Assembly: GCA_963801995.1 (NCBI GenBank) | Contig: CAWDGW010000014.1 | Location: 359,523 to 423,522 of the forward strand | Origin: an uncultured Holophagae bacterium | Lineage (GTDB): Bacteria; Acidobacteriota; Thermoanaerobaculia; Thermoanaerobaculales; Sulfomarinibacteraceae | DNA length: 64,000 nucleotides | Direction: 5' to 3' | Shown: in pieces, positions 1,902-48,303 of the stretch | How positions within the stretch are numbered: the first letter of the stretch is position 1 | Layout: every line of letters starts with the position of its first letter | Notes under the pieces: model-generated | The model's database searches: none | What the model was told of the DNA's origin: nothing | What the model saw: only the letters and a program-made list of their open reading frames with translations | Program-made: the position numbers and the translations under genes

Positions 1902-4439
1902 ATGGTTCGGATGCTACGACCCCGTCGACGGACCCTCGCCCTGCTGGCGCCTGGGATTTTTGCGTTCCTGATCGCCGCCCTGTCGGTTGCGGACATGTTC
2001 CTGCCGCGACCGTACGACGGGGTTGTCCTTGAAGCGGACAACCCCAAGGCCAGGGTGGTGAGGCAGGTGGTGTCCGGTTCCGGCGCCGACCGGGCTGGAA
2101 TCAGACCGGGTGACATCATTGTCGGCATCGATCGGACCTTCCTCGACGATCGAACCAACGCCCAGACCTTGCTCAACCGGCACCGGTTCGGCGAACGCGT
2201 TCCCTACCTGGTTCGGTCGGGCGGCCACATCTTCGAGGTTGAGGTGGAGATGGGCCGCCGCACCATCGGCGACATCTCCTACCTCGTGGCCTGCCTGCTC
2301 GGCCTGACCTTCTTTCTAGTGGGTTCCTTCGTAGTGGTGAAGCAGCCGCGGATGCCGGCGGCTCGAGTCTTCGCCACCATGTGCAGCCTGTTCATGCTAT
2401 TTCTGGTGTGCCGCCTGCGGCCCGCCTCCTACTCGTGGGTGGACACCCTGGTGTTGACCACCGGTACGGTAGCGCTGCTATTCCTGCCGGCCGCATTCCT
2501 CCACTTTTTCCTGATTTTTCCACGGGCCATCTGGGAGTGGCGCCGAGATCCCATCGCCAACACCCTGGGTTGGATCGCCCGCCGGAGTCGGCGGATGGTC
2601 CCGCTGTACCTGGTGCCGCCCCTGGTCTACGTGGCGGCTTTCGGGTGGTCGAGGGTGACTGGCCGGCCGCTGGCTCTGATCAGCGGCGCACCCGCTGCCA
2701 ACTGGTGGGTGATGGTCGGCTACATGATGCTCGGGCTCGGTGCGTTGTACATCAGCTCGCGCCACCTGCCTGATGTCCAGCAGCGACGGGGACCCGGGCT
2801 CGTCTTCGTCGGCTCCGTGTTCGGTGTTGTTCCCTTCTTGGTGTTCGCGGTGGCCTTTCCATCGTTCCTCGATACCGAGCGATTCCTGTTCTACGGCGTG
2901 GTTCCGCTGGTCCTCGTGCCCATTACCTTTGCCTACGCGATCATCCGCTTCCAGCTGCTCGACATCAGGGTGATCCTCCGCAAGAGCCTGCTCTACACCG
3001 TGACCACCGCTCTGGTGACCGCGGTCTACGCACTCGGCATCGCATCCTTCAATCTTTTGTTCCGAGGCACTCAGCTGGCGGCCTCACCGTTCTTTCCGGT
3101 GGTCTTCGCGCTCGCGATCGTCCTTCTCTTCGAGCCCCTGCGTCATCGGGTTCAGGGCCCTATTGATCGCTTCTTCTTCGCCGAGCGGCTCCGGCTCCAG
3201 CGGGCCATGGTGGAAATGGGGGAGGCGTTTACCAACGAGGTGGAGATCGAACCCGTCGTGAGCCAGCTTGTGGAGCGCCTGCCAAACCTGCTCAAAGTTC
3301 ACTTCGCGGCGCTCTACCTCATCCAGGGGAACCGGCTGATCCGGGTTGCGGGGCCGGTGGAGCTGCCCCTCCAGCTGCCCAACCTGAACATCCTCTACGA
3401 TCACCTGAAACGCCATGGATCCCTGGTTCGGCTCGACGATCTCGCGCCGCTCCGGCTGCTCTCGAGGGACGTTGAGGAGCTCGCTGACCAGCTCGGAGCG
3501 GTGGGCGTGGAAGTGCTCGGTGTGTTGGCCACGACCCGGCGGACGGTCGGCATCATGGTGCTCTCGGGCTCCACGCGGCAGACCTCTCTCGAGCAGGATG
3601 AGCTGCAGCTACTTCGCGGCTTGTTGAATCAAGCCTCCATCGCCCTGGAAACCCACCTCCTCCTGGACGAGCGAGCCCGGCAGGCCGAGTTCGATCGCGA
3701 GCTCAAAATCGCGGCTTCGATTCAGGCCTCGCTGCTGCCGGCCTCTCTGTCCGGCGCCGACGGCTGGCAACGGGCTGCGGTCTGCCACCCGGCGCGAGAG
3801 ATCGGCGGTGATTTTTTCACCGAGCTGCCCGGACCCGAGCCCGGGTCGAAGGCGCTCGCCTACGGCGATGTATCGGGCAAATCCATCTCAGGCGCCCTGA
3901 TGATGATGGCGGCCCACGAGGTTCTGCACTCTCTAGCCCTCACACATCGCGACCCGGAAGAGCTCCTTCGGCTTGCCAACGCGCGGTTGCACGACCTGAG
4001 GGCGCGCGATCGGGGTATTCACGGCGGCAGTTTCGTCGCCCTCGGCTACCTTGTGTTTGCGCCGGGCAACGGAGCGCTTCGCTACAGCCTGGCGGGCCAG
4101 CCGCCGCCCATGGTCCGCAGAGCGGATGGGAGTGTTGAGGAGCTGTGCATGCCGGACCATCGGGTGCCCCTGGGAGCCCTGGGCTTTGGCGGCCACGAGG
4201 TGCTGAGCACCACCCTCGGGCCTTCGGACTTGATGGTGGCGTACTCCGACGGAGTGGTGGACGCGCAGTCTCCCGAGGGAGAGTTCTTTGGCGAGGAGCG
4301 CCTTCAGCGAGTCATCCAGGACTGCCCGGACCATCCCAACGACGCCGTGAACTGGATTGTCGAGGCCCTCGAGGATTTCACCCGCGGCCATACGCCCTAT
4401 GACGATGTCACCTTGCTCGCCGCCCGCTGGATCGGCTGA
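1902..4439 (+). CDS. membrane sensor phosphatase: PDZ + polytopic membrane region + GAF-like + PP2C/SpoIIE domain
   Basis: 845 aa. PDZ-like GIRPGDIIVGID near the N-terminus, about ten hydrophobic segments, and C-terminal SpoIIE motifs GGDFF, YGDVSGKSISGALMM, YSDGVVD, DDVTLL. Confidence 0.8.
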   Translation: MVRMLRPRRRTLALLAPGIFAFLIAALSVADMFLPRPYDGVVLEADNPKARVVRQVVSGSGADRAGIRPGDIIVGIDRTFLDDRTNAQTLLNRHRFGERVPYLVRSGGHIFEVEVEMGRRTIGDISYLVACLLGLTFFLVGSFVVVKQPRMPAARVFATMCSLFMLFLVCRLRPASYSWVDTLVLTTGTVALLFLPAAFLHFFLIFPRAIWEWRRDPIANTLGWIARRSRRMVPLYLVPPLVYVAAFGWSRVTGRPLALISGAPAANWWVMVGYMMLGLGALYISSRHLPDVQQRRGPGLVFVGSVFGVVPFLVFAVAFPSFLDTERFLFYGVVPLVLVPITFAYAIIRFQLLDIRVILRKSLLYTVTTALVTAVYALGIASFNLLFRGTQLAASPFFPVVFALAIVLLFEPLRHRVQGPIDRFFFAERLRLQRAMVEMGEAFTNEVEIEPVVSQLVERLPNLLKVHFAALYLIQGNRLIRVAGPVELPLQLPNLNILYDHLKRHGSLVRLDDLAPLRLLSRDVEELADQLGAVGVEVLGVLATTRRTVGIMVLSGSTRQTSLEQDELQLLRGLLNQASIALETHLLLDERARQAEFDRELKIAASIQASLLPASLSGADGWQRAAVCHPAREIGGDFFTELPGPEPGSKALAYGDVSGKSISGALMMMAAHEVLHSLALTHRDPEELLRLANARLHDLRARDRGIHGGSFVALGYLVFAPGNGALRYSLAGQPPPMVRRADGSVEELCMPDHRVPLGALGFGGHEVLSTTLGPSDLMVAYSDGVVDAQSPEGEFFGEERLQRVIQDCPDHPNDAVNWIVEALEDFTRGHTPYDDVTLLAARWIG

Positions 4440-14379: not shown

Positions 14380-14433
14380 CTGGCACCTTCAGCAAGTCGG
14401 CAAAGCGGTGCCTGGCACCCTTAGGCACCCTTA
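14380..14433 (+). repeat. REP family 1 copy (GTCGGCAAAGCGGTGCCTGGCACC) with extra GGCACCCTTA half-sites
   Basis: Palindrome GGTGCC-T-GGCACC. Same 24-mer as at 16447 (inverted), 17473 and 18330. Confidence 0.85.
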
Positions 14434-16184: not shown

Positions 16185-16430
16185 ACGATCCTCCCTGTTC
16201 GAGCAGTCCCCGGAAGGACTATGCGCTGGCTCGATGAAGTTCCTCGAAATCGAGAAAGCCTCATCAAAACAGCATCTGAAATTGTTTGGCTACCCAATTA
16301 AATAGTTCTTCTCCGGGGGGATGTCAACCTGGCTGGTGGCAACGGCCGGAAAGTGAACCAGGGCAACGGTTGGTAATTGACCCACCCTGGGCGGTTTCAG
16401 TGTAAGGAAAGGGAAGATGCAGTGGTTATA

Positions 16431-16470
16431 AAGGTGCCATATAAAGGTGCCAGGCACCGCTTTGCCGACT
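16431..16470 (-). repeat. REP family 1 copy, inverted orientation, with extra AAAGGTGCCA half-site
   Basis: GGTGCCAGGCACCGCTTTGCCGAC is the reverse complement of the 18330 copy. Confidence 0.85.
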
Positions 16471-16492
16471 TGTTAGAATCGACTCGGGATAA

Positions 16493-18320
16493 TTGATGCC
16501 AAGAGCAGGGCGTAGCTTCGAGGAAGGAAGGACCTACCACGTGTACAACCGCGTGGCCGGGGGAAGGATGGCGTTCGAGGACGACGAATTGGCCGGAACA
16601 TTCGTCGATCTTTTCCGGCAAGCGGCCGACCGGGACGAGGTCGCCGTCCTGGGTTGGTGCCTGCTCGGGAATCACTACCACATGATCCTCCGACAGGGCC
16701 CTGTGCCATGTCTCGGACGATGAAGACAATTCAGCAGGGCGTCAATAGAAAGAGGAACATCCGGGAAGGCACGACGGGCCTCTCTGGCAGGGGAGGTTTA
16801 AGGCCAAGGAGGTGTCAGATGACGACTACCTCCGCCAGTTGGTGGCGTACGTCCATCTCAATCCAGTAAAGGCAAATCGTTGCAGGACGGTTGATGATTA
16901 CCGATTGAGTGGGCATGGCGACGTTGTCGGCAAAAGGCGAAACCCGATCGTCAGGGGGGATGATGTTCTTCTGTTGTTCGGGGACAGGAGACGGGAGGCG
17001 CTGCGGCATTACCGCAGAGCTCTGGCTGGCATAGGCGGAGAGGAGTGGGCAGGTGAGGGTCCCGGCAACCTGCCGTGGTGGCGTCTGGGTCGGCCGACCG
17101 AGGAGGAGAGGCTGAAACGCAGCGAGGGGGCGTACATCGACGAATTGGGACGGAGTACGGCGATGTGGCGGCCAAGGATCGAGGCGAGGGACTGGGTCAA
17201 TTTGGCCTGTTCACATTTGGGCGTTAACCCAGAAGAGCTGAAAGGACACGGGCGTGACCCGGAGATCGTGAAGTGCCGGGAACTCATCGGATTGGTGGGA
17301 ATCGAGCGGTATGGAGTGAAAGTCAACGAATTGGCCGAGGTCCTCGAGAAGTCGCGGGACGGCGTGAGCAAGTCGATGCACTGCGGCGCGGTTCGAGGGT
17401 ATCTGACCCCGGAATGTGCCGCGGCCGCACAAGCGCTGGACGACGCTGCGGGAAGAGCCCTAATAGTGATAGGTCGGCAAAGCGGTGCTTCGCACCTTTC
17501 CATGGGTTGGTGCCTGCTCGGGAATCACTACCACATGATCCTCCGACAGGGCCCTGTGCCACTGTCTCGGACGATGAAGACAATTCAGCAGGGCGTCACT
17601 AGAAAGAGGAACCTCCGGGAAGGCACCTACGGGCCTCTCTGGCAGGGGAGGTTTAAGGCCAAGGAGGTGTCAGATGACGACTACCTCCGCCAGTTGGTGG
17701 CGTACGTCCATCTCAATCCAGTAAAGGCAAATCGTTGCAGGACGGTTGATGATTACCGATTGAGTGGGCATCGCGACGTTGTCGGCAAAAGGCGAAACCC
17801 GATCGTCAGGGGGGATGATGTTCTTCTGTTGTTCGGGGACAGGAGACGGGAGGCGCTGCGGCATTACCGCAGAGCTCTGGCTGGCATAGGCGGAGAGGAG
17901 TGGGCAGGTGAGGGTCCCGGCAACCTGCCGTGGTGGCGTCTGGGTCGGCCGACCGAGGAGGAGAGGCTGAAACGCAGCGAGGGGGCGTACATCGACGAAT
18001 TGGGACGGAGTACGGCGATGTGGCGGCCAAGGATCGAGGCGAGGGACTGGGTCAATTTGGCCTGTTCACATTTGGGCGTTAACCCAGAAGAGCTGAAAGG
18101 ACACGGGCGTGACCCGGAGATCTTGAAGTGCCGGGAACTCATCGGATTGGTGGGAATCGAGCGGTATGGAGTGAAAGTCAACGAATTGGCCGAGGTCCTC
18201 GAGAAGTCGCGGGACGGCGTGAGCAAGTGGATGCGCCGCGGCGCGGTTCGGAGGGTATCTGACCCGGAATTTGCCGCGGCCGCACAAGCGCTGGACCACG
18301 CTGCGTGGGAAGAGCCCTAA
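16493..18320 (+). pseudogene. REP-associated tyrosine transposase (IS200-like HUH/Y1 domain + DnaA_C-like HTH tail), disrupted by indels and an internal tandem duplication
   Basis: N-terminus YHVYNRV and HUH motif GNHYHMIL in ORF 16493..16723. The catalytic-Tyr region YVHLNPVKA occurs twice in the fused ORF 16812..18320. Copy 1 of the body carries several 1-2 nt indels relative to copy 2. Confidence 0.75.
17473..17501 (+). repeat. REP family 1 copy, degenerate, at the duplication junction
   Basis: GTCGGCAAAGCGGTGCTTCGCACCTTTCC; the palindrome is weakened (TGCTTCGCA). Confidence 0.8.
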
Positions 18321-18329
18321 TTGTGATAA

Positions 18330-18358
18330 GTCGGCAAAGCGGTGCCTGGCACCTTTCC
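18330..18358 (+). repeat. REP family 1 copy
   Basis: GTCGGCAAAGCGGTGCCTGGCACCTTTCC, located 10 nt after the RAYT stop codon. Confidence 0.85.
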
Positions 18359-18400
18359 GATACCAACAATGCTGAGGGCGGCATCAACATGTTCATCACC

Positions 18401-18420
18401 CATGACGTGCCCGGCACGTT
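18401..18420 (+). repeat. REP family 2 copy (CATGACGTGCCNGGCACGT)
   Basis: Palindrome ACGTGCC-C-GGCACGT. Shares the GTGCCNGGCAC core with family 1. Confidence 0.8.
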
Positions 18421-18509
18421 GAGCCACTCGTGGGCAGCCCGGTTGAGAGCGTCGCGCCCGGCACCCATCGAACGATCGCAGTTGCCCTCGGCGAGACAGC
18501 AGCGTAGGC

Positions 18510-20316: not shown

Positions 20317-20528
20317 GGTCCTGTTTCCTCCTGTTTGATCCTGTCAACTCGACAATATCATGGTGATCCAGGTCGAGACCGGGCTTATGTTGCCGCGACT
20401 CTCTGGATCGTTCCAACGCGCCCCTGGGGTCAGGTCACACCGGTTGCGATTCTCACGTCTATTTTTCACAATACGGTTCGAGCGTTACGACACGCTGATC
20501 CGATGGTAGCGTGCGCCATTAGACACCA

Positions 20529-21500
20529 TTAACAGCCCCGGCTGTCCGGTTGCGGCTCTACCGCGTTGGACCCTTTTGCCCGAAACTGGAGAGAGATCAC
20601 CACCGTGGACACGATCAGGAAAACGGTGGTGAGGATAGACCCCTCCAGTCCGAAATCGCCCCCGGTCAGCACCTCGGAGCCGCTGACCTGGTTGCCGATC
20701 AGGCTCGGGCTCTCGAGGCCGCTGACCTTGAAGCCGAAGACCGGGCCCTGGAACAGGTTCCAGGTGAGGTGCATGCCGATGCTGAACCACAGGTTGCGGC
20801 AATAGATGTAGTAGACGCCGAGGACCACCCCTGCGAGCACGAGGTTGATCACGCTGAGCAGCGAGATGTTGGCGTTGAACAGGTGGAAGGCGGCAAACGC
20901 AAGCGCCGAAAGGAGGAGAGCAACCCAGTGGTGCATCGACTCCATCAGGTTGCTCAGCAGGTAGCCACGGATCAGCAGCTCTTCTGTGAGGGCGACCAGG
21001 GTCAGAACGGCCAGGTAGCCGAGGAACGACGACAGGCTTATGGCGTCGTGGTCGGGCACGACGGTCAGGGCGCCCGAGGCTCGGAGCACCACAAATCCGA
21101 AAACGATGAGCCCCGCTCCCCAGGCCATGCCCTGAACCAGGTGCGCGCCATACCCGCGTACGGTGAGGCCGAGCGAGAGCAGGGACCGCCGGTCGACAAA
21201 CCGCCGCAGGGGCCAGACCACGGCCACGGTCAGGGCGAAGCTCAGTCCCTGGATCAATGCCAGGACCCCTAGGCCGAGGGAGGACAGATCCTGGAACGCC
21301 TCCGCGCTCGGTGGCTCGCCGTCGGTGACGGCGGCGTACACGCCCACGCCGACCACCACCACGATGGTCAGCCCGATCATCCCGAAGACGTAGACGATCA
21401 CGCACAGCAGGGCGCGCAGCCAGCCGTGGGGGACGAGCGGCTGGGGATCGCTGCTGGGGTGTACAGCCCGATCGACCTGTGACTGGCTGGATTGGTCCAT
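20529..21500 (-). CDS. CPBP family intramembrane glutamic endopeptidase
   Basis: Polytopic protein with TEELLIRGY, FAAFH and HLTWN motifs. Confidence 0.75.
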   Translation of the reverse strand: MDQSSQSQVDRAVHPSSDPQPLVPHGWLRALLCVIVYVFGMIGLTIVVVVGVGVYAAVTDGEPPSAEAFQDLSSLGLGVLALIQGLSFALTVAVVWPLRRFVDRRSLLSLGLTVRGYGAHLVQGMAWGAGLIVFGFVVLRASGALTVVPDHDAISLSSFLGYLAVLTLVALTEELLIRGYLLSNLMESMHHWVALLLSALAFAAFHLFNANISLLSVINLVLAGVVLGVYYIYCRNLWFSIGMHLTWNLFQGPVFGFKVSGLESPSLIGNQVSGSEVLTGGDFGLEGSILTTVFLIVSTVVISLQFRAKGSNAVEPQPDSRGC

Positions 21501-21865
21501 CCGGTCCCCCTGATTTCGTCTGGCGTGATCTCTGCCATGCTATACGCATCGATTGCGACGTGGTTTCGGGCGCCGACACCCATCTAAATCGGTCCGTGTT
21601 GCTTCGGAAAATGGTGCCACTGACAACAACCTCAGATTCTGCAGGCCAACTCGGATCCTGCCTTTCGAGGGGTTCGGCAGATTGTCCAGGTTTCTCTGGA
21701 AAAGAGAGCGCGTGACGACCCGGCCCATCGGGTCACGGATTTCGGGGGTTGGTTATGGAATCAAGCCACCCCCAAAACTGCGCGATCGTGACCACGGTTG
21801 TGACGTCGTGATCAGTGGCACCCTGGTGAGGGGTTGGGTACGATGGGCAAAGAAATGACATCTCC

Positions 21866-46898: not shown

Positions 46899-47008
46899 GA
46901 ACCTCGGGCCCCTTCCCGTTCCGGTACCCGAAAACGACTCACCTGAGCCTTCTATCAAATCACCATCCACGGTTGGAGGGGAGGTTGGTTTTTCGAGTAC
47001 AGTTCTTT

Positions 47009-47072
47009 CGGGAACGGGAACGGGAACGGGAACGGGAACGGGAACGGGAACGGGAACGGGAACGGGCACGGA
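47009..47072 (+). repeat. hexamer array GGAACG x9 (+1 degenerate)
   Basis: Lies in the trpF-trpB spacer. A partial inverted copy CCCTTCCCGTTCCGG is at 46909-46930. Confidence 0.95.
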
Positions 47073-47109
47073 GTCGGACAGGGGTAGAATCAGGCGGTAT
47101 GGAAAGACC

Positions 47110-48303
47110 ATGAAGAAATTACCCAACTCCCGCGGCTATTTCGGCGATTACGGGGGGAGGTTCGTCCCCGAAACTCTGATGGAGCCTCTCGCTGAGCTCG
47201 AACGGGCCTTCCGACGTTCGCGACGGGATCGGAGCTTTGTCAAGAAGCTTGACGATCTGCTGGCGCACTACGTGGGCCGGCCGACGCCACTGTTTTTTGC
47301 GGAGAGCCTCTCCGATCGGGTGGGTGGAGCCGAGATTTGGCTCAAGCGGGAGGACCTCTGCCATACCGGGGCACACAAGATCAACAACGCTCTCGGTCAG
47401 GGATTGCTCGCCGTGGCCATGGGCAAGGAGCGGGTGATCGCCGAAACCGGTGCCGGCCAGCACGGGGTGGCTGTAGCCACCGCCGCCGCCCTGCTCGGGC
47501 TCAAGTGCCGGGTGTATATGGGCACCGAGGATATGCGCCGGCAGGAGATCAACGTCTTCCGCATGCGCCTTATGGGCTCTGAGGTGGTCGGGGTGGAGGC
47601 CGGGTCAAAAACCCTGAAGGATGCCATCAACGAGTCCATGCGGGACTGGGTGACCAACGTGGCCACGACCCACTACATCCTGGGTTCGGTGTTGGGACCC
47701 CACCCCTTTCCGGAGATGGTGCGCGACTTCCAGTCGGTGATTGGCAGGGAGGCTCGGGTTCAATTCAAACGGCAGGCGAAAGGAACCCCGGAGATGGTGG
47801 TGGCCTGTGTCGGCGGTGGATCCAACGCGGCCGGGATCTTCACGGCATTTGTGGCCGACGAGTCGGTCAGGCTCGTGGGTGTCGAGGCCGGGGGTCGAAG
47901 CAGCTCGCCGGGTGAGCACGCGGCGCGGTTTGGTGGCGGTGGGTCCCCGGGTGTGCTCCATGGAACCCGAACCTGGATGCTCCAAGACGAGGACGGTCAG
48001 GTGTTGGGCACCCATTCGGTGTCCGCTGGTCTCGACTATCCGGCGGTGGGTCCGGAGCACGCCCAGTGGCACGACACCGGGCGGGTCACATACACCAAGG
48101 TGGACGACGAGCAGGCGCTCGAGGCTTTCCACCTTCTGGCCGAGACCGAGGGAATCGTGCCAGCCCTCGAGTCAGCCCACGCCATCGCCCACACGGTGAA
48201 GGTCGCTCCGGGCATGGCTCGGTCGGCGAGAATCCTGGTCAACCTGTCCGGTCGAGGAGACAAGGACCTGGATGAAGTGGTGCTGGTGGAGGGTGGATCG
48301 TGA
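47110..48303 (+). CDS. trpB: tryptophan synthase beta chain
   Basis: [14 protein letters not shown]-lysine motif and GGGSNA. Confidence 0.95.

Follow-up and report, generated by a model that had tools for sequence, protein, structure and literature searches.

Terminus-anchored duplication of a RAYT-type gene in sediment Acidobacteriota and the recurrence of end-anchored duplications among its relatives

The TnpA_REP/RAYT proteins of subclass 2.1, defined by Quentin et al. 2018 (PMC6006769), correspond to RAYT group 1 of Bertels et al. 2017 (PMC5581495) and include, in subclass 2.1.2, long forms with a C-terminal HTH of the Bac_DnaA_C, HTH_23 or HTH_28-like type (PMC6006769). They also correspond to what Di Nocera et al. 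2013 (PMC3733652) named 'TIRYT/TIRtron', among which is an Acidobacteria-specific group. HUH enzymes leave a 3'-OH and a 5'-phosphotyrosine, and the E. coli enzyme cleaves a few nucleotides outside the hairpin, between C and T, either 5' or 3' of the REP (Corneloup et al. 2021, PMC8266576). The mechanisms by which REPs are disseminated are poorly understood; the 3'-OH may prime replication, which has been raised as one possibility, or resolve the covalent link, and both might spread REPs (PMC8266576). Clusters of tandemly repeated REPINs and BIME arrays are known for REP systems, and these repeat whole units together with their flanks, unlike the nested fragments with one common terminus described below. 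In the IS91 family, in Helitrons and in RCR Rep errors an HUH nick likewise gives a 3'-OH and a 5'-phosphotyrosine, and the by-products of rolling-circle HUH enzymes have one fixed and one variable end and include head-to-tail arrays of truncated copies. In the RAYT/TIRYT literature that we searched, neither nested duplications anchored at an element terminus nor the disruption of a gene during such a duplication has been described.

The window analysed here, a stretch of 64,000 nt from an uncultured Holophagae bacterium whose coordinates are used throughout, holds a gene of this type in duplicated form. Joining its N-terminal part (16493-16649) to the second unit of the duplication (17503-18320) yields an uninterrupted ORF of 978 nt that encodes 323 aa from the ATG at 16496; a sequence-only reading of the window had anticipated both this continuity of frame and an intact product, of about 325 aa, upon collapse of the duplication. 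The collapsed protein is 97% identical to metagenome protein P0001. It scores 81.4 bits against NCBIfam NF047646 REP_Tyr_transpos (cut-off 80), the best family match rather than IS200, and 27.3 bits against Pfam Y1_Tnp PF01797 (cut-off 23), so that the Y1/HUH, RAYT-type identity assigned to the gene from the bare sequence is upheld. Both H60-Y-H62 and Y119-V-H-L-N-P (the Y119-x3-NP motif) show little or no variation among 17 homologues, and a profile compared with solved structures retrieved E. coli TnpA_REP 4ER8 as the sole match (E=1.2e-7), with both motifs aligned. Similarity to Bac_DnaA_C lies below the cut-off (E=2.2e-5; 24.8 bits against 31.5), HTH_31 matches weakly over residues 271-315, and PF08299 is precomputed for the homologues P0086 and P0100.

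With its long Y1/HUH protein of 323 aa bearing the HYH and Y-x3-NP motifs, its C-terminal HTH weakly similar to Bac_DnaA_C, its terminal inverted repeats of 30-37 nt, some of them forming moderately abundant repeat families, the several diverged copies per genome seen in its family and its occurrence in Acidobacteriota, the window element resembles subclass 2.1/TIRYT. Unlike most TIRYT repeats, which carry GGGGWSAS, those studied here have GGTGCCWGGCACC, or GGTGCCACG in paralogues, and GGGGACGT-like ends were found only in the distant Desulfobacterales loci L063 and L064. The E. coli-type REPtron (groups 2 and 3) shares a gene lying between inverted palindromic repeats and the dispersal of solo copies and head-to-head doublets, which for our repeat was seen in metagenome contigs. 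In contrast to that system, the window protein has roughly double the length and includes an HTH domain, its palindrome has a 5-6-bp stem without the GTAG tag (GTAA at best), and near-identical genes occupy different contexts, as is typical of insertion sequences. Gene copies 93-97% identical indeed lie in unrelated flanks, and single MAGs hold several paralogues (L006, L008 and L046 in one; L040, L054, L055 and L059 in another), whereas a single copy per genome and vertical inheritance characterize groups 2 and 3; paralogue number and contexts fit group 1/subclass 2.1 over groups 2 or 3. IS200/IS605 elements likewise have an HUH/Y1 core and subterminal hairpins and are cut a short, constant distance away from the hairpin, the last only predicted for our element, but their TnpA is of ~130-150 aa with a Y-x4-Q type motif and often a tnpB partner, fixed tetranucleotides serve as their targets and they lack inverted-repeat ends; the window element instead encodes 323 aa with an extra domain between inverted ends, in a repeat-RAYT-repeat unit of ~1.07 kb without a second ORF. 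The likeness to rolling-circle HUH elements is one of analogy, in nick chemistry and in copies sharing one fixed end: those elements rely on Y2 or Rep-type enzymes that act on a defined origin and terminator, whereas our enzyme is a Y1 RAYT whose family has inverted ends and duplications at both of them. The gene is therefore best described as a RAYT/TnpA_REP, the best fit being the long form with C-terminal HTH (subclass 2.1, 'TIRYT'-like) of sediment Acidobacteriota.

The element is bounded by inverted arms of 37 nt (16443-16479 and 18320-18356) that are 92% complementary, and the 24-nt core of its repeat, GTCGGCAAAGCGGTGCCWGGCACC, occurs four times in the window against an expectation of zero. 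The left terminal inverted repeat (16441-16479, minus strand; core match 16446-16469, minus strand) contains the palindrome GGTGCCAGGCACC at 16446-16458, and homology with the relatives L001, L002 and L003 starts at the left terminus, around 16441. The right one (18320-18358, plus strand) ends the element at 18358, in ...GGCACCTTTCC followed by GATACC; homology with the same three loci, whose flanks are unrelated, stops at GGCACCTTT(A/C)C, and contigs of runs X2 and X9 carry the right flank fused to unrelated DNA exactly at 18358. An internal copy of the right repeat, RE1 (17473-17501, plus strand), carries two substitutions at the palindrome centre (GGTGCTTCGCACC) and retains a 5-bp stem. The inverted repeats around the gene had been taken for REP hairpins; the repeats are there, but the hairpin is weak (5-bp stem, -4 to -7 kcal/mol, z-score 0.1 to -2.3), that name overstates it, and 'terminal inverted repeat with short palindrome' is more accurate. 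The left end also shows a 'stutter' overlooked in the first reading, TATAAAGGTGCCA twice at 16427-16452 on the plus strand (TRF period 13, 2.0 copies, 100% identity), a partial duplication in tandem that reaches from the left terminus as far as the palindrome centre; partial duplications of other lengths lie at the same place in L001, L002, L003 and L008. The only repeat copy outside the element within the 64 kb is a solo one 2 kb upstream (14393-14432, plus strand), with a 10-nt terminal stutter of its own, GGCACCCTTA/GGCACCCTTA.

Repeat search and global alignment agree on a head-to-tail duplication of units 16650-17501 and 17503-18358 (both plus strand), identical in 837 of 858 alignment columns and spaced 853-857 nt from start to start, in keeping with the ~855 bp first noticed; both share a perfect block of 300 nt (16774-17073 and 17629-17928). 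Unit 1, or copy 1, extends from Gly53 (GWCLLGNHYH) to the stop-codon region and the repeat, and unit 2, or copy 2, is near-pristine, with its TAA stop at 18318-18320. A single extra A separates them (17502, plus strand), standing between ...CACCTTTCC and TGGGTTGG, so that the junction reads ...GCACCTTTCC/A/TGGGTTGG; this A either has no template or reflects a C>A mismatch adjoining the junction. The comparable junction of L008 is ...CACCTTTAC/AT/CTTGG. The junction had been placed directly after the flank of the hairpin, and this can now be made more precise: its position in RE1 is that of the boundary between element and flank at 18358 (...GGCACCTTTCC). Contigs of runs X3, X8, X6 and X4 join 16649 straight to 17503 or are without frameshifts. 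The duplication of this locus is known from one assembly; in the public runs searched only single-unit relatives were found, related strains having different DNA at this site, and none of the contigs crosses 17502/17503 or contains the RE1/A/TGGG junction, copy-1 variants or copy-1-specific words.

The locus holds no intact gene. The N-terminal coding part present once (codons 1-52, MPRAGR...AVL; 16496-16649, plus strand), whose homologues also begin with MPRAGR, runs into copy 1 and meets a stop at 16723 after 76 aa. Copy 1 lacks a single nucleotide at 16709 and another at 16772; a -1 change at 17395 and a +1 change at 17407 offset each other; and the loss of 2 nt at 17450 takes the TAA out of frame. 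These are all the indels listed in the sequence-only reading, with some positions shifted (from ~16710, ~16780 and ~17445); that reading was also right about the absence of an intact gene, the cause of which is not the duplication. Unit 1 still has a stop codon and terminal repeat of its own, so the duplication alone would not break the gene, and the RAYT ORF of the window is dead because of the copy-1 lesions. The copies differ by 14 substitutions, and 18 derived lesions (13 substitutions and 5 indel events) fall in copy 1 against one, a substitution at 18123, in copy 2 (P=7.6e-5). Those of copy 1 are rich in indels and transversions and cluster at relative positions 60-124 and 725-842, 17 of the 18 being no farther than 130 nt from a unit end (P=2e-8). 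Both units begin with the same 59 nt (16650-16708 and 17503-17561). Generic indel error was rejected as the source of the frameshifts, the rest of the window being ~85% covered by long, intact ORFs of up to 1200 aa. For a downstream CNNM/CBS gene, exact-protein look-ups with two different starts returned no record.

A fused ORF of 502 aa (16812-18320, plus strand), overlooked before, joins the C-terminal two thirds of copy 1 in frame to copy 2, the repeat between them being translated as well. Strand beta1 and helix alpha1 of the HUH fold are missing from its product, which is probably non-functional; a search against 5.8 billion proteins found only 323-aa matches, none covering more than 59% of the ORF. 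The possibility that the duplicated form is a normal two-domain protein or a conserved fusion, named at the outset as the finding that would overturn the duplication, is thus ruled out: the ~680 homologues are all of ~323 aa and the collapsed ORF is intact and 97% identical to P0001, so that the two-unit form is not the normal architecture.

The arrangement of inverted repeats around the gene is shared by L001-L003 and L008, and tandem duplications anchored at the element ends, of 7-289 nt, recur across the family. They were present in 23 of 59 related loci, and the gene-end zones (25.2 kb in all) contained 30 TRF arrays (period of at least 10, identity of at least 95%), the flanks (257.9 kb) only 15, which gives densities of 1.19 and 0.058 per kb (P=2.7e-21). 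Units at left ends start with N3-5 GGTGCCA and those at right ends finish with TGGCACC plus 3-7 nt; the exception is L006, where the unit ends at GGCACC itself and not 4-7 nt past it. Many short units begin at the palindrome centre. In L008 a segment of 289 nt from codon 240 to the repeat is present twice, L054 and L037 have 149 and 157 nt, respectively, duplicated from the left end into the gene, and L047, whose source we take to be a long-read MAG, contains three nested 3' fragments, all finishing in GTGGCACCCGTC and unequally diverged, one copy being rich in deletions and 87% identical. The window duplication is the largest among the cases found, and the ORF stays intact in the other family members with end duplications. 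At solo repeats, furthermore, a perfect tandem duplication crosses the terminus in 14 of 80 distinct repeat ends, drawn from 84 metagenome stretches, against 11 of 1453 control positions (odds ratio 28, P=1e-12). Of 79 ends compared by side, 14 had duplications on the outer side and none on the inner one (P=1.2e-4), a comparison that is somewhat biased since the search pattern fixed 7 inner nt. Short stutters occur in JGI and ENA metagenome contigs, presumably short-read, as well as in long MAG contigs, presumably long-read, which makes an artefact of any single platform unlikely. The inner breakpoint of the window duplication (GTCC/TGGGTTGGTGCCTG, with GGTGCC 6 nt downstream) was considered as a pseudo-left-end and rejected as a general explanation, the motif being absent in L008, L047, L054 and L037.

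It is somewhat more probable than not, in our judgement, that the locus is a repeat-RAYT-repeat copy in which the 853-nt duplication anchored at the right terminus arose from nicking, extension and rejoining by the transposase, a process that repeatedly affects element ends in this family, its ORF being killed by the lesions of copy 1. The transposase would nick at the outer boundary of the terminal repeat, 4-7 nt past the GGCACC half-palindrome (the predicted nick lies 4-5 nt 3' of GGCACC on the strand ...GCAAAGCGGTGCCTGGCACCTTTCCGATACC); a DNA polymerase would then extend the 3'-OH over a variable distance, usually 7-45 nt, often to the palindrome centre and occasionally by hundreds of nucleotides, and the transposase would rejoin the 5'-phosphotyrosine-linked end to the extended 3'-OH. 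The outcome would be a tandem copy that always includes the terminus, and the lesions would probably stem from low-fidelity synthesis or repair tied to the duplication event. Their placement is left unexplained by the simplest form of nicking, extension and resealing, because there the new copy would be the outer one, whereas it is the inner one that bears the lesions. The first proposal, which traced the junction to transposase activity at the repeat, receives comparative support from the boundary position and the 23 of 59 loci, short of proof; nicking and joining by the transposase and not by the hairpin alone, the order of the enzymatic steps and the origin of the lesions are what we infer from the sequences.

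A rather unlikely alternative dispenses with the transposase: the palindrome would stall the polymerase and the nascent strand would re-anneal upstream by microhomology, through slippage or template switching. The 2-3 nt of microhomology at the window junction (TCC; GTCC/TGGG versus TTCC/A/TGGG), the ACA at that of L008 and the many short units spanning palindrome centre to end, as a hairpin block would give, are also compatible with slippage at a stalled hairpin, and the clusters of lesions near the breakpoints resemble the error-prone replicative template switching of MMBIR-type events. Nevertheless, the outer end points cluster 4-7 nt past the palindrome instead of at the stem base, at the spot where independent insertions border on their flanks; the polarity was strict (14 outer, 0 inner), although stalling would be expected on either side of a symmetric palindrome; the hairpin is weak, as described above; and a jump of 853 nt on 3 nt of homology with an extra base fits simple slippage poorly.

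We regard as improbable that unit 2 was derived from another, intact element as a 5'-truncated copy covering residue 53 to the right end, and was inserted in trans where a resident copy, by then already decayed, is cleaved, the repeat ends serving as insertion targets. Such an insertion would account for a pristine copy 2 next to a decayed copy 1, and it would agree with the near-identical genes in different contexts, with the unequal divergence of the nested 3' fragments of L047 and with the frequent adjoining of repeats in this family, as in L001, which lies beside a GGTGCCACG-type repeat, or in strains of runs X23 and X24, where a further repeat follows this site 37 nt to its right. Against it, the N-terminal part of the presumed resident is not decayed, 189 nt (16520-16708) being identical to a run X4 contig that stays in intact frame where ~3 lesions would be expected (P~0.04); the first 59 nt of copy 1 match copy 2, and the lesions lie at both ends of copy 1 instead of being evenly spread as age predicts.

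There is an equally small chance that an artefact is involved, either in that the duplication was mis-joined or in that it is real and polishing at repeat boundaries in a mixed population introduced the copy-1 lesions, in which case unit 1 would be an intact gene with an extra partial copy behind it. No independent data set contains the junction or the lesions, the clustering of indel- and transversion-rich lesions near unit boundaries is what such errors might produce, and the deletion-rich copy of L047 offers a parallel. The junction, however, has no misleading k-mer overlap (8 nt at most), the long ORFs over ~85% of the window indicate a low general rate of indel error, equivalent duplications are found in several independent assemblies, apparently from different platforms, and the palindrome was called without error in its three other window copies.

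A reversible switch, with the two-unit form as OFF, collapse as ON and the arrangement kept for that purpose, had been suggested on the strength of the intact 323-aa ORF obtained by collapse, to which may be added the identical 59 nt and a decay confined to the part that would be lost, but it has little in its favour and appears very improbable, as the frame is restored only by a crossover inside those 59 nt (the 300-nt and other downstream blocks give frameshifted products), re-duplication cannot recreate the decayed copy 1 and so the state would not be reversible, the duplicated lineage gains nothing from collapsed offspring, the other end-duplicated members keep their ORF, and none of the public runs searched has both forms at the locus, the single-unit contigs of other runs differing by a few percent, being too short to reach the flanks or lying at other sites.

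The evidence points to nicking and rejoining by the transposase itself, with the duplication as a side effect, and not to a designed switch. By itself the window locus is a dead copy of a mobile gene, and its value lies in the recurrent pattern; what is new here is that the gene was broken by lesions in copy 1 and that end-anchored duplications recur across the family. The pattern bears on the mode of action of RAYTs in cells and on the multiplication of REPs and REP arrays. It is tempting to speculate, tentatively, that nested end-anchored duplications are in vivo footprints of replicative RAYT/TIRYT activity, the enzyme nicking, a polymerase extending and the ends being resealed. If so, in vivo cut sites could be read from genome sequences alone, the growth of REP arrays would have a simple and testable model, and a (semi-)domesticated HUH enzyme would cause local duplications, self-inactivation included. 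Such transposase-driven and possibly error-prone duplication, copying up to hundreds of bases of adjacent DNA, the enzyme's own gene included, may be the elementary step in the growth of REP arrays and BIME-like clusters.

Repeats of this family also occur away from the gene. An exact scan for the 24-nt core in the contigs of species-representative genomes gave no matches, and an exact 20-nt core was found in the 84 metagenome stretches, only 19 of which have a RAYT nearby. Head-to-head repeat doublets with spacers of 19 and 36 nt are present in runs X23-X25, at a depth of up to 12.7 in X25.

Repeat finding and global alignment revealed that positions 16650-18358 form a head-to-tail duplication made up of a first unit (16650-17501), a single junction nucleotide, A, at 17502 and a second unit (17503-18358). 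The two units are identical in 837 of 858 aligned columns, share a 300-nt block without any mismatch and differ by 14 substitutions and five indel events, with copy 1 lacking one nt at 16709, one at 16772 and two at 17450 and showing a -1/+1 pair (17395, 17407). Inverted repeats of 37 nt (16443-16479 and 18320-18356; 92% complementary) enclose the locus, and their 24-nt core, GTCGGCAAAGCGGTGCCWGGCACC, is present at four sites in the window versus zero expected by chance: at the left end, in an internal copy at 17473, at the right end and in a solo copy at 14396. The left end also shows a partial duplication of 13 nt, present twice (16427-16452). The N-terminal ORF ends after 76 aa at the duplicated locus, and joining 16496-16649 to 17503-18320 yields a 323-aa ORF without interruption; another ORF of 502 aa (16812-18320) connects copy 1 in frame, via the translated repeat, with copy 2. 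Since unit 1 still has its own stop region and terminal repeat, duplication alone would have kept the gene intact and added a further, partial copy behind it. Small coordinate shifts apart, the sequence-only reading described the locus correctly, the left-end duplication, the 502-aa ORF and the consequence of the retained stop region and repeat of unit 1 being additions to it; the 853-nt duplication is thus confirmed as an observation in the assembled sequence, although no contig of the public runs searched carries its junction.

The collapsed protein scores 81.4 bits against NCBIfam REP_Tyr_transpos (curated threshold 80) and 27.3 against Pfam Y1_Tnp (curated threshold 23), and an alignment of 17 relatives revealed conservation of the HUH histidines, H60 and H62, and of the Y119-x3-NP motif, all of which upholds its assignment to the REP-associated tyrosine transposases (RAYTs). 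The sole solved-structure match of the profile built from this alignment was the E. coli TnpA_REP (4ER8), to which both motifs align, and the last third of the protein is an HTH weakly similar to Bac_DnaA_C. In the scheme of Quentin et al. 2018 the gene fits subclass 2.1.2, the equivalent of RAYT group 1 in Bertels et al. 2017; it likewise fits the "TIRYT" entities described by Di Nocera et al. 2013, one group of which is specific to Acidobacteria. In species-representative genomes, related loci come almost exclusively from sediment Acidobacteriota MAGs (Thermoanaerobaculia, Sulfomarinibacteraceae, Holophagae), among which several diverged paralogues per genome are frequent. A search of 5.8 billion proteins retrieved ~680 relatives, practically all of 322-330 aa, the closest (P0001) being 97% identical across the full length of the collapsed protein. 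No protein in that database covers more than 59% of the 502-aa ORF; therefore, the two-unit form is not a normal architecture of a family whose members have ~323 aa.

The termini of the mobile unit were mapped by aligning the collapsed locus with the related loci L001, L002 and L003 (protein identities of 97%, 93% and 78%), each lying in unrelated flanking DNA. Homology begins at (G)TAAAGGTGCCAGGCACC... and stops at ...GGTGCCTGGCACCTTT(A/C)C, thus defining a repeat-gene-repeat unit of ~1.07 kb that in the window extends from ~16441 to 18358. In contigs of two public sequencing runs, X2 and X9, the right flank is fused to other DNA exactly at 18358 and related strains diverge on the left at 16405, so that the element is a strain-specific insertion with 18358 as its true end. 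The duplication junction, ...GCACCTTTCC/A/TGGG, occupies the exact homologous position of this end in the internal repeat (17473-17501), so that the suspected link between junction and repeat end holds. Related strains (X2, X4, X5, X9 and X21) have both flanks in common with the window and different DNA between 16405 and 18358; left of the site these strains continue with CTCATGGTCTGAGG..., and the 21 nt at 16406-16426 are absent from them too. In other strains (X23 and X24) a different repeat of the family (...AAAGCCTGGCACCCGTT) abuts 18395, 37 nt to the right of the insertion, which would make the intergenic stretch upstream of the CNNM/CBS gene an apparent hotspot of such repeats.

Duplications anchored at the element ends are recurrent. 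Tandem arrays (period of at least 10, identity of at least 95%), counted by self-comparison and TRF on the related loci, reached 1.19 per kb in terminal zones versus 0.058 per kb in the remainder of these loci (P=2.7e-21), with end duplications in 23 of the 59 loci having a full-length gene. Left-end units begin N3-5 GGTGCCA and right-end units finish TGGCACC plus 3-7 nt. The majority span 7-45 nt, often from palindrome centre to terminus, and to this kind belong the 13-nt left-end stutter (a short partial terminal tandem duplication) of the window and its solo repeat at 14396. Longer cases include L008, where the duplicated stretch of 289 nt extends from codon 240 across the right repeat (junction CACCTTTAC/AT/CTTGG), L047, with three nested 3' fragments of 258, 121 and 72 nt each finishing in GTGGCACCCGTC, and L054 and L037, in which duplications of 149 and 157 nt, respectively, start at the left terminus and take in the first 16-20 codons; at 853 nt the window duplication is the largest found. 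The solo repeat (14393-14432) lies 2 kb upstream in a stretch without long ORFs, has its own 10-nt terminal stutter (GGCACCCTTA, twice) and is preceded by a TGGCACCTT fragment.

Solo repeat ends behave likewise: a perfect tandem duplication across the terminus was present at 14 of 80 distinct ends from 84 metagenome stretches versus 11 of 1453 control positions (odds ratio 28, P=1e-12), and in the comparison of sides (79 ends) the outer side of the palindrome accounted for all 14, the inner side for none (P=1.2e-4), with the caveat that part of the inner side was fixed by the search pattern. Short stutters occur in JGI and ENA metagenome contigs and in long MAG contigs; if these are short-read and long-read products, respectively, as assumed from record names and lengths, the pattern is not tied to one platform. 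A contig of run X1 covering 18288-18438 carries after 18346 a 16-nt insertion, TGGCACCTTTCCGATA, that repeats in tandem the right half-palindrome, the terminus and 4 nt of flanking sequence; this duplication thus reaches beyond the boundary of the element. Recurrent, polar, terminus-anchored duplications are not described for the RAYT/TIRYT family in the literature searched. Taken alone the window locus is ordinary; as a recurrent class, these duplications provide a testable handle on the in vivo action of RAYT/TIRYT enzymes.

Single-stranded DNA cut by HUH/Y1 enzymes is left with a 3'-OH and a 5'-phosphotyrosine; with the E. coli enzyme the cut falls a short distance (a few nt) to the 5' or 3' side of the REP, and the free 3'-OH can prime synthesis or resolve the covalent link (PMC8266576). 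Beyond the anatomy and the statistics, which are shown, the simplest scheme for variable-length, terminus-containing duplications at both ends would be nick-extend-reseal, whose enzymatic steps we infer from sequence: cleavage at the outer repeat boundary would release a 3'-OH to be extended over a variable distance with strand displacement, and the extended end would be resealed onto the enzyme-linked 5' end. The extra copy would then be carried on one strand and fixed at the next replication, and the additional A in the window and AT in L008 would be untemplated additions or misincorporations at the join. The main rival, transposase-independent slippage at the palindrome, would account for the short microhomologies and for inner end points at the palindrome centre, but it fits poorly with outer end points that coincide with the insertion boundary instead of the stem base, with the strict polarity of the duplications and with a weak hairpin. 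As single-stranded DNA the palindrome forms only a 5-bp stem of weak stability, and "terminal inverted repeat with a short palindrome" is a more accurate name than REP hairpin. The nick-extend-reseal account is itself incomplete, as it puts the new copy outside and the lesions sit in the inner copy.

When differences between the copies were polarised with L001, L002 and L003, 18 derived events fell in copy 1 versus one in copy 2 (P=7.6e-5). All but one of the 18 lie at most 130 nt from a copy-1 end (17/18; P=2e-8), clustering at relative positions 60-124 and 725-842 of 852, with none in the central 457 nt (simulation P=2e-5). The unique N-terminal part is 100% identical over 189 nt to an X4 contig that stays in the intact frame. 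The locus is a pristine gene (N-terminus plus copy 2) split by a copy damaged near both ends. Such damage could stem from low-fidelity synthesis or repair coupled to the duplication, from age, if the duplication is older and gene conversion has homogenised its centre, from lesions in a displaced single strand, or from consensus errors made at the boundaries of the repeats when the population is mixed. In L047 the third nested copy (4265-4385) is 87% identical to its master and deletion-rich, its neighbouring fragments being 98-100% identical, a hint of copies that are "born damaged", or else of poor long-read consensus in such arrays. The damage pattern at the window locus is not what clock-like decay of a symmetric duplication would give, and low general assembly quality is at odds with the long, intact ORFs elsewhere in the window.

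Of the interpretation given in the sequence-only reading, the family assignment, the abnormal architecture and the link of the junction to the repeat end stand; the reversible on/off state that it also proposed does not. Restoring the gene by collapse requires a crossover inside the first 59 identical nt, exchange in longer identical blocks retains the frameshifts, the reverse step is unable to regenerate the decayed copy, and both states were seen together in none of the populations in the public runs searched. A regulated switch is thus highly improbable, and we regard the locus as a dead gene copy.

The repeat family behaves like REPs, its exact 20-nt core being found in 84 metagenome stretches with a RAYT nearby in only 19. 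Head-to-head doublets with 19- or 36-nt spacers in X23-X25 resemble REPINs (joints 16471>18331 in X23 and X25, 16464>18336 in X24); composed of left repeat, spacer and right repeat with no gene between, at depths of up to 12.7, they look like miniature non-autonomous derivatives. An internal-deletion derivative (joint 16583>18181, with 12-nt microhomology) that keeps ~30 N-terminal and ~46 C-terminal codons was found in three independent runs, X2, X9 and X25. Two repeat subfamilies, of the GGTGCCWGGCACC type and of the GGTGCCACG / CGTGGCACC type, are frequent neighbours, separated by at most a few tens of nt (L001 at about 370-397, L114, L142 and L150), which suggests that repeat ends are insertion targets across subfamilies. 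About ten contigs (L087, L094, L100, L113, L125, L129, L141, L150, L152 and L156) have the same 25-30 nt (...CCAGCGAACTAGATCTGCAAAGCGG) on the inner side of the repeat; the 1.1 kb available on that side of L100 contain no RAYT similarity, so the repeat may also bound a different cargo or gene family. Elsewhere in the window, ~1.1 kb at 46942-48036 are without a long ORF, and the minus-strand ORF at 20485-21579 has a GC3 of 0.44, atypically low for a window of 63% GC.
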